Assembly (NCBI GenBank): GCA_000004695.1
Contig: CM000154.2
Location: forward strand, 1,120,001 to 1,184,000
Length of the DNA stretch: 64,000 nucleotides
Source of the DNA: Dictyostelium discoideum
Taxonomy: Eukaryota
Direction of reading: 5' to 3'
Shown: positions 54,416 through 59,033 of the stretch, piece after piece
Position numbering within the stretch: position 1 is the first letter of the stretch
How the letters are laid out: each line of letters begins with the position of its first letter
Program-made: the position numbers and the translations under genes
The notes under the pieces: model-generated
Databases searched by the model: none
Seen by the model: the letters and a program-made list of their open reading frames with translations, nothing else
Told to the model about the DNA's origin: nothing

Positions 54416-54719
54416 ATGACTCTCTTTTGTAGGTTTTACTAAATTAAAAAAAAGTTTTTTTTTTCAGAATAATAATTAACAATTTGTATTTTTCTTTATA
54501 CTTTTAAAATTAGCATCATTATCATCATTAAGCACTGGTTCTTTGAAATCAAGTGTTTCTTCAATTGAAACTGGTAGTTCAAGTGGTTCATTTGGTTCAA
54601 ATGAAACATCGGGATGGGGTCACCATCATTGGAATAGTTGTCATCCATGTCCACCACCACGTCCAATCTGTCGTCCATGTCCACCACCATGTCGTCCAGT
54701 ACCAAGATGTCATTATTAA
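54416..54719 (+). CDS. hssA/2C/7E-family-like small Ser/Gly-rich protein with a Cys/Pro-rich C-terminus. Exons are 54416..54428 and 54514..54719.
   Basis: Exon 1 is ATG ACT CTC TTT T followed by GTAGGT. The acceptor is AAAATTAG (54512-54513). The product is [72 protein letters not shown]. It has the same 13-nt first exon and MT(I/L)…S-rich architecture as the minus-strand family member at 58682..59033. The ORF track lists only the spurious antisense ORF 54496..54705. Confidence 0.5.
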
Positions 54720-55199
54720 AGTTTAGTTTTAAATAAAATTAATAAAAAATATATTCAAACACATTGAATTTGATTTTGGAAAATTTACTACCAATAAAAC
54801 TAATGATAATAAAATTCTTTTATTAACAAAATTTATTATTTAACAGAAATATAGAATGTATTAATGATGCTCAAAAAACTGATGATTTAAAATATGTTAG
54901 AGAATGGGTTTATTCCTTTGTGAGTCAATGTCCAATACATAATCCAATAGTTTTTTTTTTTTTTTTTTTTTTTCCTCAAAACAATTACAAAAAATTTGAT
55001 TGTAATTTTTTTTTTTTTTTTTTTTGGGGTTGTAAATTAATAAAAAATAAAATAAATTATAATTTTATTTATTTTGGAGTTGTAAATTAGTAAAAAAAAA
55101 AAAAAAAATAAATAAAAAAAATTTGATTACAACAATTTTAAGATTTATTTATTTATATTTTTTTTTATTTTTTTATTTTTATTTTCCAATACTTTTTTT

Positions 55200-56549
55200 T
55201 CATTTTTTATCTTGATTTTCAATTTGATTTTGATTATCTTTATCTTTATCTTCATCATCATCATCAGTATAATAAGCAAATGGTTGTCTTAATAAACAAG
55301 ATAAGAATAAAGTGATTGGTAAAGATATTAAGGATATGATATATAAACGTTTTGGAGAGATTTTAGTGATGAATGGTAATGCTAAAGAGGCACTACTTAA
55401 TGCCATACAAGTGAGAGTGATTGGATGAACGTTGAAATTAAAGAAATAGTCAAAGATGAAAGGCAATGGAATACCAAATAAAGCATGAGCCAATGAAACA
55501 CGATCCACTGTTTTCTTTTCGTGAGTCACTGATAACATTTTATAACCTGCACCACGATATTGTTCACGAAGTACTTGAGAGAGTGCTAAGAAATGAGGAA
55601 TTTGCCAAATGTACATAAAGGTAGCCAATAGCATACCGATTGCTTCAAATTCACCAGTGGCAGCAACCGAGCCGATTAATGGGGGGATGGCACCGACGAA
55701 TGCGCCAATCCAAGTATTCAAGGGTGTGACCCTCTTCAAATCGGTGTACCAGCAATATAGGATAACATTACATGCTGCCAATGTGCCTGGAACAAATAGT
55801 GATGGTGTGACAGCCATAGTGCCGAATCCCAATGTTAACAATGCTATCGAACCCACCCATGCCTTACCTCTATTAATAGTACCAATTACCAATGGTCTAT
55901 CTTTGGTACGTGGCATCTTTCTATCATGTTGTACCTCAATTTCTTGATTATGAATATTTGCTGAGCATGATGCTAAAAATGTACCAATACTAACTTGACT
56001 CAAAACTACCCAATCAAATGCTCCAATTGGACATGCTGCAACATATCCCGCTATAGCTGTCAATGTAACATAAACTGTAATTGGTAATTTAATTAATGTC
56101 ATATATGGTCCTCTTAAAAATCCTTTAGATTTTGTTTGATTTGATTTTATTGATTGTTCATTATTATTATTACTATTTTCATTATTATTTTCATTATTAT
56201 TTTCATTTTTAATATTATTTTCATTTATATTTGTAGTAGTTGTTGTTGATGTTGTTGTTGTTGATGTTGAATAAATTCTTTTTAAAAATTGATTCTTTTC
56301 TTCAAATATATTGTTATAAATTATTTTTTTATCATTTTGTTGTTTATTTAAAAATTTATCATTTAAAATTATATTATTGTTATTATTGTTATTATTACTA
56401 TAATTATTATTACCACTATTTAATCTGGTTATGGTGGTTGAAGATTTCATATAATAATTTTGAAAATATAATAAACCCCCATTTTTTGAATTGGTAGTAT
56501 TTCGCAATCCTGATTTACTAATATTATTGATAATTTTTGATAACATCAT
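55200..56549 (-). CDS. cox10: Protoheme IX farnesyltransferase (heme O synthase, COX10), mitochondrial, with an Asn-rich N-terminal extension.
   Basis: The core is a UbiA prenyltransferase fold with …NIHNQEIEVQHDRKMPRTKDRPLVIG… and …GAFVGAIPPLIGSVAATG…YIWQIPHFLALS…. It has multiple TM helices and is a single exon. Confidence 0.85.
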   Translation of the reverse strand: MMLSKIINNISKSGLRNTTNSKNGGLLYFQNYYMKSSTTITRLNSGNNNYSNNNNNNNNIILNDKFLNKQQNDKKIIYNNIFEEKNQFLKRIYSTSTTTTSTTTTTNINENNIKNENNNENNNENSNNNNEQSIKSNQTKSKGFLRGPYMTLIKLPITVYVTLTAIAGYVAACPIGAFDWVVLSQVSIGTFLASCSANIHNQEIEVQHDRKMPRTKDRPLVIGTINRGKAWVGSIALLTLGFGTMAVTPSLFVPGTLAACNVILYCWYTDLKRVTPLNTWIGAFVGAIPPLIGSVAATGEFEAIGMLLATFMYIWQIPHFLALSQVLREQYRGAGYKMLSVTHEKKTVDRVSLAHALFGIPLPFIFDYFFNFNVHPITLTCMALSSASLALPFITKISPKRLYIISLISLPITLFLSCLLRQPFAYYTDDDDEDKDKDNQNQIENQDKK

Positions 56550-56758
56550 CTTTTATCTTAATTCTAATAATAGTGCCAAGTGTTTTTTTTTTTTTTTTTT
56601 TGTTATTTTTTTTAAAAAAAAATTGTTTTTTTTTTTTTTTGAAATAACCTTTGAAGAATGTGTGTGTGTGAGTGAGTGTAGATCTAATCTAAAATTGGTT
56701 TTTTTTTTTTTTTTTAAATTTAGTATCTATTTTCCCCCATAAAATGCTTTGTTGAGAG

Positions 56759-56791
<33 letters not shown>

Positions 56792-57223
56792 TTTTAAATA
56801 CGCACAATTTGTGATTTTTTTTTTATTTTATTTTTTTTTTATTTTTTTTATTTTTTTTTATTTTTTTTATTATTTTTATTTTATTTTTTTTTTATTCTGT
56901 TTTTTTATTTTGCCCCAATAATAAAAATTCTCAAAAGGCTCCTCAATCTGATGGTGTGATTATGGCTCACATCATTATAAAATAATTGAAAATAATTAAA
57001 TTTTTTTTTTTTTTTTTAATCAGTTTATTCTCTTTTTTTAGTTTTTCCAAAAATGGTTTCATAATTAATCAACATTTTTCATACAATTGTATATTTTTTT
57101 TTTTTTCCAGTCCATTTATGATGGGCAGCCTATAATTTTTTTTTTTTTTTTATAAAAATTAATAAAAAAGAATCTATTATTATTCACAGTATTGGAATTA
57201 AATCTCCTCAAAAAAACAAAATC

Positions 57224-57257
<34 letters not shown>

Positions 57258-57512
57258 TGAAATTATCCTAATAATAAAGCATTATCATTCATATATAACA
57301 TTTTTATTTTAATATTTTTTTTTTTTCTTGAAAAAAAAAAATTTGTATTTTGGATAATAATAATAATAAAATTATAAAATTCAACTATTTATAATTTTTT
57401 TTTTCTTTTTTTTTTTTCTTTTCCAATCATATTTTTAAAATCAAAATAGTAAATTAGGATAATAAATAAAGATAATAAATTAAGATAATAAATAAGGATA
57501 ATAAAATAAAAA

Positions 57513-57626
57513 ATGAAAAGAATTATTAATCTAAAAAGAAGAAAAAATAATAAAATAAATTCAAAATATTTTTTAAAAAAAAGACATTTAAAAATTTTAA
57601 TGAAATCAAATCAAATAAAAAAAATA

Positions 57627-57721
<95 letters not shown>

Positions 57722-58520
57722 TAATAATAATAATTTTAATAAAATTAATTTTAATAAAAAAAAATTTAAAATTGGGAATAATTTAAATGAATTAAATTCA
57801 ATAATAATACCAAATGATACAACTCATTTATTATTTTCAAATTATTTTAATTTACAATTAAATCAATTAAAGATACCAAAATCTGTAATTTCAATTAATT
57901 TTATAAATAATTGTTTGTTTAATCAAAAAGTTTGTAAAAATAGTTTTTCAATAATGAATAAATTAAAAATACTTAAATTTGGTGATAATTTTAATAATGC
58001 TGATTTACCAATTAAAAATGGTGATTTACCAATATCTTTAATTGAATTAGATTTGGGAACATTGTATAATCAAGATTTAGAAAAGGGTTCTATACCATTG
58101 AATGTAAAGAAACTATCATTGGGTGAGTCATTTAATAAAGAGTTAAAAGTTGGTGATATTCCACCAAAAGTTGTATCATTACAATTTAGTGAACATTTTA
58201 ATCAAATAATTAAACCAAACGTACTACCAAATTCAATCACTGATTTAACATTTGGTTCAAAATTCAATCAACCTCTATTACCAAATTCAATTCCAAACAA
58301 TTGTAAAACTTTATTTTTTGGTGTAGATTTCAATCAACAAATTCAAATTAATGTCATTCCACCCTCTGTAACTAAAATCATTTTCAATCGGTCATTTTCT
58401 CAAAAAATTTTGCCAAATTCAATAAAATCAAATGTTAAAGAAATCTATTTCAGTAATTCTTTATTAGAATCAGAATTAGAAAATTTACCAAAAACAACAA
58501 AAGTTTATTTTAATTCTTAA
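57513..58520 (+). CDS. FNIP-repeat protein with polyN near the N-terminus.
   Basis: It carries repeated FNxxL..G.IP.SV..L.FG..FNQ units (…FGSKFNQPLLPNSIPNNCKTLFFGVDFNQQIQ…). Confidence 0.6.
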
Positions 58521-58681
58521 AAAAAAAATAAAAAAATTAAATAAAATAAAAAAATAAAATAAAATATAACAAAATAAATTTGTAATTAATATCATAATGT
58601 TGTTTATTATTATTTTTTAATAAGAAATATTTTTTTTTGAGTAATTTTAAGGTTTATAAATTTCTTTTTTTTTTTCTTTTT

Positions 58682-59033
58682 TTAAATATTTGGAGTATAT
58701 CCTAATAAAATACCAGTGTTAGCACCTTTACCAAGGCCATCAACAGTACCAGTGAGGGCACCAGCGACAAGACCAGTAATTGATGTTACAGTACCACTAA
58801 TGAATGCTACAACTGGTAAAAGTGGATTGAAAAATGAAATGATTGATGATGATGAATTACTTCCAAAACCAGCACCACAACTAGATCCGTTAAATGAAGA
58901 TTTTGAACCACCCATTTTCATTGATCCAATTTGAGAGATTGATCCTTTATTATATAAATATAAAAATTATTAACATATGTTTATATATACATTTTTTTAG
59001 AAATTAAAAAATTTAATTACCTAAGATTGTCAT
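58682..59033 (-). CDS. hssA/2C/7E-family small Gly/Ser-rich protein. Exons are 59033..59021 and 58944..58682.
   Basis: Exon 1 is ATG ACA ATC TTA G followed by GTAATT. The acceptor is ATAAAG (58945-58946), phase 1. The product is MTILGSISQIGSMKMGGSKSSFNGSSCGAGFGSNSSSSIISFFNPLLPVVAFISGTVTSITGLVAGALTGTVDGLGKGANTGILLGYTPNI*. This is the characteristic MTILG…, Gly/Ser-rich, roughly 90-aa architecture of the family. Confidence 0.7.

Follow-up and report, generated by a model that had tools for sequence, protein, structure and literature searches.

We conclude with high confidence that two small split genes in a 64-kb window of Dictyostelium discoideum chromosome 5, both already annotated, have the architecture of the sigN/hssA/2C/7E type and are turned on as development reaches its end, in the cup cells, which keep the spore mass on the stalk. 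The window is the whole stretch of DNA that was analysed (64,000 nucleotides; contig CM000154.2, positions 1,120,001 to 1,184,000), and all positions below are counted from its first letter. DDB_G0288167 lies on the plus strand and encodes a protein with a Cys/Pro-rich tail; sigN139 (DDB_G0288185) lies on the minus strand. Both genes, the 13-nt first exon (2008) and a cup-specific clade of related genes (2018, 2022) are already known. This analysis adds that selection acts on the protein frame and not only on the RNA, that a tandem duplication of a CPxCPPP module, with six invariant cysteines, makes up the tail, that homology to hssA genes ends after about residue 50, and that the DDB_G0288167 copy sits in DNA missing at the same position in D. 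firmibasis. These two tiny split genes, of a kind that naive finders of open reading frames (ORFs) miss or place on the wrong strand, were correctly read de novo.

The plus-strand model, read from the sequence (54416-54719), gives a 72-amino-acid protein from a 219-nt spliced coding sequence, and the minus-strand spliced model (58682-59033) gives a product of 91 amino acids. In an exact-sequence look-up, the first protein matches Q54JB4 / DDB_G0288167 of D. discoideum AX4 chromosome 5 (5,125,352 bp) and the second matches Q54JB1, 'Protein sigN139 / hssA/2C/7E family protein'. The minus-strand gene is DDB_G0288185 in the table of Kin 2018 (PMC6198379). NCBI, UniProt and that table all give DDB_G0288167 as 'hypothetical' or 'unknown'. 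A preliminary description, made from the letters alone, had both genes opening with a 13-nt exon before the donors GTAGGT and GTAATT, and both exons and donors were found exactly there (Table 1). Its introns of roughly 80 nt are 85 nt in the plus-strand gene and 76 nt in sigN139, and the C-terminal sequence it wrote for the plus-strand protein is identical in the 72-residue product.

The window has a G+C content of 22.7%. A mechanical scan for ATG-N10-GTA with an AG acceptor 50-130 nt downstream and a frame of 60 codons or more finds four start sites in it, whereas 100 simulated sequences from a third-order Markov model average 0.55. The two sites that do not belong to the present genes lie within an unrelated long ORF or in junk. 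A search of the window for further family members by tblastn and the 13-nt-exon scan matched only unrelated ORFs.

Table 1. Features of the two loci and their surroundings (positions in the window)
Feature	Position	Strand	Remarks
Segment without D. firmibasis counterpart	53593..55134	.	MOSC and cox10 blocks 1,542 bp apart here vs ~82 bp in D. firmibasis
Dispersed paralogous unit (promoter, gene, 3' flank)	53993..54957	+	common to other Cys/Pro loci
G7 box, candidate cis-element (inferred)	54215..54221	+	~200 nt upstream of the DDB_G0288167 ATG
DDB_G0288167 exon 1, 13-nt ORF, MTLF + 1 nt	54416..54428	+	ATG at 54416; ATGACTCTCTTTT
DDB_G0288167 intron, 85 nt, phase 1	54429..54513	+	GTAGGT...TTAG, A/T-rich
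DDB_G0288167 exon 2, 206 nt including TAA	54514..54719	+	Ser/Gly-rich half, GWGHHHW motif, six-Cys Pro-rich tail
Internal tandem duplication, most of the tail	54639..54693	+	two 25-nt copies, 30 nt apart, 92% identical
Antisense TTG-start ORF, 69 aa, Asp/Val/Met-rich	54496..54705	-	artefact of the codon-biased sense strand
sigN139 / DDB_G0288185 exon 1, 13-nt ORF, MTIL + 1 nt	59021..59033	-	ATGACAATCTTAG
sigN139 intron, 76 nt	58945..59020	-	GTAATT...AAAG
sigN139 exon 2, 263 nt including stop	58682..58944	-	Ser/Gly-rich, then hydrophobic Gly-zipper-like segment
C5 box of sigN139, at -237	59266..59270	-	only run of >=4 G or C in 450 bp upstream

Transcripts are published for both genes, a check that the preliminary description had asked for (PMC6198379, PMC8808424). 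DDB_G0288167 stands at 8,757 transcripts per million (TPM) in cup cells, 191 in spores, 27 in stalk and 1.3 in vegetative cells (Kin 2018, Supplementary file 5, PMC6198379). Over the time course it stays at 0.4-8.7 from 0 to 20 h and reaches 190 at 24 h, with 2.0 in prespore and 1.4 in prestalk cells (PMC6198379). By the published table it is thus expressed late and in the cup, although reads could map to more than one paralogue. Late timing and enrichment in the cup hold for sigN139 as well (24 h 671, Cup 69 TPM; PMC6198379), which relies heavily on the cup transcription factor Cdl1a for its expression. Its counts are 7/18/4 in cdl1a- vs 2988/2071/1356 in wild type (log2 fold change -8.1, adjusted P 3e-30), and among the genes lost in cdl1a- fruiting bodies it ranks fifth by significance (PMC8808424, Data S1). 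A search for the DDB_G identifiers found no match in the main texts of the articles; the data sit in supplementary tables.

DDB_G0288167 is one member of a clade. Its protein falls in a 90%-identity cluster of ten distinct sequences and at least 11 AX4 loci; the cluster comprises DDB_G0288167, 0285567, 0285569, 0285441/0288841, 0285443, 0285737/0293890, 0286675, 0276685 and 0276687, together with one sequence from another D. discoideum strain. Kin 2018 (PMC6198379) described these cup-specific genes as ~213 bp long with a first exon of 13 bp and named them 'hssA-like' or 'hssA/7E/2C related'; DDB_G0276687, later beiE, carries the second name (PMC6198379, PMC9117722). Its promoter fused to lacZ stained the upper and lower cup in late culmination (PMC6198379). 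Forbes 2022 (PMC9117722) listed beiE as 'hssA-related' and conserved in 'Ddis' only. The cup and spore reporter genes used there were responsive to cyclic di-GMP (c-di-GMP) and 8Br-cAMP, and cAMP inhibited the induction of beiE by c-di-GMP. The other Cys/Pro paralogues reach 20,748-50,520 TPM in the cup, except DDB_G0276685 with 82 (PMC6198379). Summed over the eleven Cys/Pro loci, the Kin 2018 values come to ~311,700 TPM, or roughly 31% of cup-cell transcripts. DDB_G0276685 is nearly silent despite an intact protein. By the published RNA-seq the clade is expressed almost only in the cup.

The preliminary description had not associated the Cys/Pro tail with this family and asked whether it recurs in paralogues; it is present in every one of the ten aligned sequences. 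Mean column identity across them is 93%, and the window protein is 90-99% identical to the other members, beiE included. Six cysteines (C47, C50, C57, C60, C64 and C70) are invariant, with the spacing C-x2-C-x6-C-x2-C-x3/4-C-x5-C. Paralogues differ in length by whole Pro (CCA) codons, which keeps the reading frame; DDB_G0288167 differs from DDB_G0288841 by an extra CCA codon in the tail and by a terminal TAT (Tyr) vs CAT (His). The two copies of the internal 30-nt tandem duplication (54639-54663 and 54669-54693) each encode C(H/R)PCPPP(R/C).

Searches for relatives of the tail returned little besides the clade itself. A HMMER profile search of 1.84 billion proteins gave only the own cluster and one spurious Arg/Leu-repeat protein, and a word-indexed protein search with the Cys/Pro family gave only the AX4 cluster. 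The tail has no match among PDB sequences at E up to 10, and at the same limit Pfam finds nothing on the plus-strand protein besides PF05710. The clade is recently amplified and so far reported only from D. discoideum. As one possible source of the tail we considered a UPF0512-type gene whose Gly-rich GGTGGTTGT region had been frameshifted or inverted; such an origin is unsupported because shuffled DNA reaches the same alignment scores (19 of 300 shuffles for the forward and 17 of 300 for the reverse-complement comparison).

The two genes relate to the sigN/hssA/2C/7E family in different ways. Vicente 2008 (PMC2257962) listed 96 sigN-related genes with proteins of <120 amino acids, and 89 of the 96 have the 13-nt exon-1 ORF. 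sigN139 is among them in Additional file 1 (chromosome 5, 13//262, intron 75, 91 amino acids, 29% identical to SigN1; PMC2257962), and the one-nucleotide gaps between these sizes and our counts are bookkeeping. The Cys/Pro genes are apparently off the list, which has no chromosome 4 entry of 71-73 amino acids and whose sole chromosome 5 entry of 72 amino acids (sigN180) has a 110-nt intron. Curation therefore places sigN139 in the family directly and DDB_G0288167 only by association, as a member of the 'hssA-like' clade. In this sense both genes belong where the preliminary description put them, in the hssA/2C/7E (sigN) world (PMC2257962, PMC6198379). Its word 'canonical' goes too far for sigN139: besides its low identity to sigN1 and its PF05710 score (below), the protein has one Cys and a hydrophobic, Gly-zipper-like C-half. 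The Kyte-Doolittle maximum over 19 residues is 1.88 (residues 46-64), which suggests that sigN139 may be membrane-associated.

Both genes encode small proteins behind a 13-nt exon 1 (13 + 206 nt for 72 amino acids; 13 + 263 nt for 91). The features in common with sigN/hssA/2C/7E genes are a product of <120 amino acids, the 13-nt exon 1, a short phase-1 intron, one coding exon, an N-terminal MT(I/L)(F/L)xS(I/L)S, Ser/Gly richness and late expression, whereas the plus-strand protein lacks the Gly/Cys-rich or hydrophobic C-half. Profile-profile comparison (hhalign) of the Cys/Pro family with nine UPF0512-type proteins gives a probability of 62% and E 7.4e-5; the 49 aligned columns are 41% identical. 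They take in MT[LI]F.S[LI]SS, GWG and the first C-x2-C, and end where the Pro-rich tail starts. UPF0512 proteins (C, K, P, Q, W; an hssA/2C/7E subgroup) are the best profile-profile match of the Cys/Pro family, but their C-terminal half is unrelated to the Cys/Pro tail. PF05710 ('HssA/B-related') matches all ten Cys/Pro paralogues, with a best E of 3.5e-4. With the hhalign homology ending at the start of the tail, DDB_G0288167 appears to have the 5' exon, intron phase and N-terminal half in common with the family and an unrelated C-half, in which a Pro/Arg/His-rich tail takes the place of the Gly-rich part. The alignment to hssA/2C/7E members that the preliminary description called for shows likeness in the N-terminal half and not in the remainder. 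A HMMER search with the Cys/Pro profile against the 1.84 billion proteins found no hssA/2C/7E member at library-wide significance, and the two window proteins have no detectable similarity to each other by BLASTP (E = 12).

Comparison of DNA copies shows which frame is maintained. We compared five copies: the window copy, L003, L004 (DDB_G0288841-type) and the convergent genes L005a and L005b. Their promoters and introns are of two types, A (window, L004 and L005a) and B (L005b and L003). Exon 2 is 90-98% identical among the five copies and 90-94% identical between types. The 300 bp upstream, the intron and the 200 bp downstream are 55-68% identical between types, close to the minimum that global alignment yields for DNA so rich in A/T; the intron alone is 59-68% identical between A and B copies, and the window intron is 100% identical to that of L004. 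Over 60 indel-free codons of the five copies, the pairwise ratio of non-synonymous to synonymous changes per site (pN/pS) is 0.04-0.18. Summed over all pairs in the indel-free 167 nt of exon 2, the sense frame has 38 synonymous vs 14 non-synonymous changes (pN/pS 0.11) and the antisense frame 8 vs 48 (pN/pS 1.06). The pairs in these sums are non-independent and the numbers small; the direction is unambiguous. The DDB_G0288167 protein frame, not just its RNA, is under purifying selection.

The same comparison bears on the minus-strand, Asp-rich ORF of 69 amino acids (54496-54705), the only ORF of at least 60 amino acids in a naive six-frame scan of the region. The preliminary description found only this antisense ORF in the ORF track, which holds at that length; at >=40 amino acids a sense partial ORF of 58 amino acids (54543-54719) appears too. 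It also named, as a possible refutation, that the minus-strand ORF is the real gene and the plus-strand model spurious. There is next to no chance of this: the ORF starts with TTG, has no database match and, at pN/pS 1.06 across the five paralogous copies, is under no coding constraint, while the spliced product of the sense strand is annotated as a protein and has ten near-identical relatives, and a paralogue promoter drives a reporter in the sense orientation.

DDB_G0288167 lies in DNA that differs between species. The D. firmibasis locus is syntenic (ddi1-like gene, sigN139 orthologue, FNIP-repeat gene, cox10, MOSC and Arf-like genes), and tblastn with the 72-residue protein found no Cys/Pro gene in this 20-kb D. 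firmibasis locus. The sigN139 orthologue there has the identical 13-nt exon and donor and a 103-nt intron, and is 82% identical; pN/pS between the two is 0.21 at pS 0.44. Around DDB_G0288167, positions 53993-54868 are 92% identical to L004 and positions 54051-54957 are 84% identical to L005. From these flanks we read DDB_G0288167 as the A-type half of a convergent pair, duplicated to a dispersed site. At L005 two Cys/Pro genes of differing promoter and intron types stand tail-to-tail, ~490 bp apart (5001-5312 on the plus and 6103-5804 on the minus strand). This arrangement matches the adjacent AX4 gene pairs 0285567/69, 0285441/43 and 0276685/87. About 1.2 kb beyond the Cys/Pro pair, from L005 position 7276 onward (plus strand), lies a UPF0512-type hssA/2C/7E gene (MSIFNSISSISNP…HRRCC).

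Other traces of the duplicated unit are minor. After a good acceptor (ttaacag), positions 54848-54950 on the plus strand hold an unannotated, coding-looking fragment (…ECINDAQKTDDLKYVREWVYSFVSQCPIHNPI); it is conserved between the convergent Cys/Pro genes of L005 (~5500-5620) and not in L004, and could be a relic exon that was copied with the unit. A 19-nt direct repeat, AAAAATATATTCAAA(T/C)ACA, occurs in the 5' leader before the ATG (54384-54402) and again 26 nt past the stop (54745-54763). It is conserved in type A paralogues, and by a rough estimate ~0.004 such repeats are expected by chance in a 1.9-kb stretch. The 14-nt TTTTATTAACAAAA is found near both ends of the 0.9-kb unit (53995-54022 and 54818-54845), with ~0.3 expected in A/T-rich DNA, and could mark a duplication boundary or be due to chance. 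When the extra segment of 0.9-1.5 kb was examined for boundaries like those of a transposon, low-complexity A/T repeats and this TTTTATTAACAAAA pair were all that turned up, and these are explicable by chance.

The promoters have one element in common. All five Cys/Pro promoters carry a run of six or seven G (G6-7) between -192 and -202, even those of type B, which otherwise cannot be aligned with type A. Four of them have no further run of at least five G or C in the 450 bp upstream; L005a also has a C5 at -352. No word of at least 8 nt is common to type A and B promoters, which have only the G6-7 run in common. The D. firmibasis sigN139 orthologue has a single C5 run at -267, comparable to that of sigN139 (Table 1). 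The G6-7 and C5 runs are candidate G-box-type cis-elements.

Several observations weigh against reading these loci as family-type, cup-expressed protein genes. DDB_G0288167 aligns to PF05710 over residues 1-37 (profile positions 1-36 of 90) at 20.7 bits (E 7.5e-4), below the gathering cutoff of 21.4 bits, and sigN139 aligns over 81 positions at 13.1 bits (E 0.18), well below it; the family membership of sigN139 rests on curation and not on this score. In a second D. discoideum assembly, GCA_054883475.1 (CM142511.1), the annotation calls no gene at the DDB_G0288167 position and calls paralogues elsewhere. The TPM of DDB_G0288167 is the lowest among the ten highly expressed copies, its exon 2 is 98% identical to that of the DDB_G0288841-type copy, which makes the assignment of RNA-seq reads to this copy uncertain, and the published data may not be strand-specific. 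We found no protein-level data for the Cys/Pro clade in the searched literature, and for hssA itself an RNA-level effect is reported, with frame-shifted constructs still acting (summarised in PMC6198379).

The last two points would fit a clade that acts as RNA and not as protein, as proposed for hssA. We consider this improbable, since synonymous changes in exon 2 far exceed non-synonymous ones, all tail indels are in frame and the six cysteines are invariant. Such patterns are hard to explain without translation, although gene conversion limited to exons could add to the identity. The points on the gene call and on expression could instead mean that DDB_G0288167, as a recent duplicate, is silent or only weakly active, with its apparent expression largely due to reads from near-identical paralogues. 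DDB_G0288167 has the gene structure, the tail and the k-means cluster (6: late, cup-only) of the cup-specific hssA-like (beiE) clade, but it is solo, with just a portion of the L005 convergent-pair unit, and its expression is 2-6 times lower than that of the other highly expressed copies; it also lies within DNA absent from D. firmibasis, and the newer annotation passes it over. A silent duplicate is nevertheless rather unlikely. The ORF, donor and acceptor are intact, the 300-bp promoter is 94% identical to that of the highly expressed DDB_G0288841-type copy with the G7 box included, copy-specific differences permit unique read assignment, and the quantification can report a near-silent paralogue, as it does for DDB_G0276685. 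The missing gene call, for its part, indicates that two-exon mini-genes are easily missed. We retain DDB_G0288167 as a protein-coding gene expressed in the late cup.

In the literature consulted on this clade, with about 31% of the transcripts of one cell type, we found no discussion of the chemistry of the Cys/Pro tail. The protein has a net charge of +3, 5 His, 6 Cys, 11 Pro, four Arg in the C-half, PRP/RPxP motifs and two C-x2-C pairs. Its Kyte-Doolittle maximum over 19 residues is 0.63, with no hydrophobic signal or transmembrane segment. AlphaFold2, run on the ten-sequence alignment, gives a mean confidence (pLDDT) of 54.7 and a predicted template modelling score (pTM) of 0.15, without secondary structure. 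From the absent hydrophobic segment and the predicted disorder, the protein probably stays in the cytoplasm of the terminally differentiating cup cells. SigN1 once bore a dictyBase label of the cysteine-knot or knottin type, a compact fold in which six Cys form three nested disulfides; for the Cys/Pro protein, that comparison has on one side the six invariant cysteines and on the other the low pLDDT without secondary structure and no PDB sequence match.

By analogy, a structural role in disulfide cross-linking or metal chelation is the most likely, and we propose it tentatively. The protein would be made in enormous amounts during terminal differentiation, its rigid polyproline tail of the CPxCP type would form intermolecular disulfides or chelate metal via Cys and His, and the dying cup tissue would be hardened or stabilised as by keratin-associated proteins (KAPs) and small proline-rich proteins (SPRRs). 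KAP and SPRR proteins are small, Cys/Pro/Ser/Gly-rich and without signal peptide, are encoded by clustered, fast-duplicating genes, and reach extreme expression in dying support cells. The Cys/Pro clade may be likened to them in size, in Cys/Pro/Ser/Gly richness, in the missing signal peptide and in extreme late expression in cup cells, but there is no sequence homology and the transglutaminase substrate motifs (Gln/Lys) are absent from the Cys/Pro protein. In the IgG hinge, CPxCP (CPPCP in IgG1, CPRCP repeats in IgG3) makes rigid inter-chain disulfide bridges. The tail resembles it at the motif level only, as a tandemly repeated C-x-P-C-P in a polyproline stretch; the cellular compartment is another, and the tail has no PDB sequence match. 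A further point against the proposal is that the protein, lacking a signal peptide, would be in the cytosol, where reducing conditions speak against disulfide cross-links until the cell has died.

The same composition could also belong to a defence or chelation peptide with no structural role, either a Pro/Arg-rich antimicrobial around the spore mass or a metallothionein-like binder. The charge, the His, Cys and Pro content, the PRP/RPxP motifs and the two C-x2-C pairs are consistent with this, as are the extreme expression levels in cells capping the sorus and rapid lineage-specific amplification, which is typical of defence genes. We think it doubtful, and the defensive Pro/Arg-rich peptide taken by itself more doubtful still: the protein has no signal peptide, and the tail has no relative in Pfam, PDB or the HMMER search of 1.84 billion proteins. 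Cys makes up 6 of the 72 residues (8%), far below the about 25-33% of metallothioneins, and there is no Pfam metallothionein match. A wider proposal, which we also regard as doubtful, takes in both kinds of role. The clade would be a young 'cornification' or protective effector, in which a duplicated CPxCPPP module was grafted onto an hssA-type 5' exon and N-terminus and spread to at least 11 loci, there to serve in cross-linking of the cup or as an antimicrobial or metal-binding spore coat. If true, an organism with aggregative multicellularity would have evolved a convergent counterpart to vertebrate KAP/SPRR proteins or to proline-rich antimicrobial peptides.

Two genes between or beside those described deserve mention. 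The cox10 ORF (55200-56549, minus strand) is found exactly in the second D. discoideum assembly, GCA_054883475.1. Between sigN139 and cox10, positions 57513-58520 on the plus strand hold an FNIP-repeat-like ORF of 335 amino acids with a long poly-Asn tract. The gene has 306 amino acids in GCA_054883475.1 and 238 in the D. firmibasis annotation, and because these lengths differ its start site or N-terminus is uncertain.

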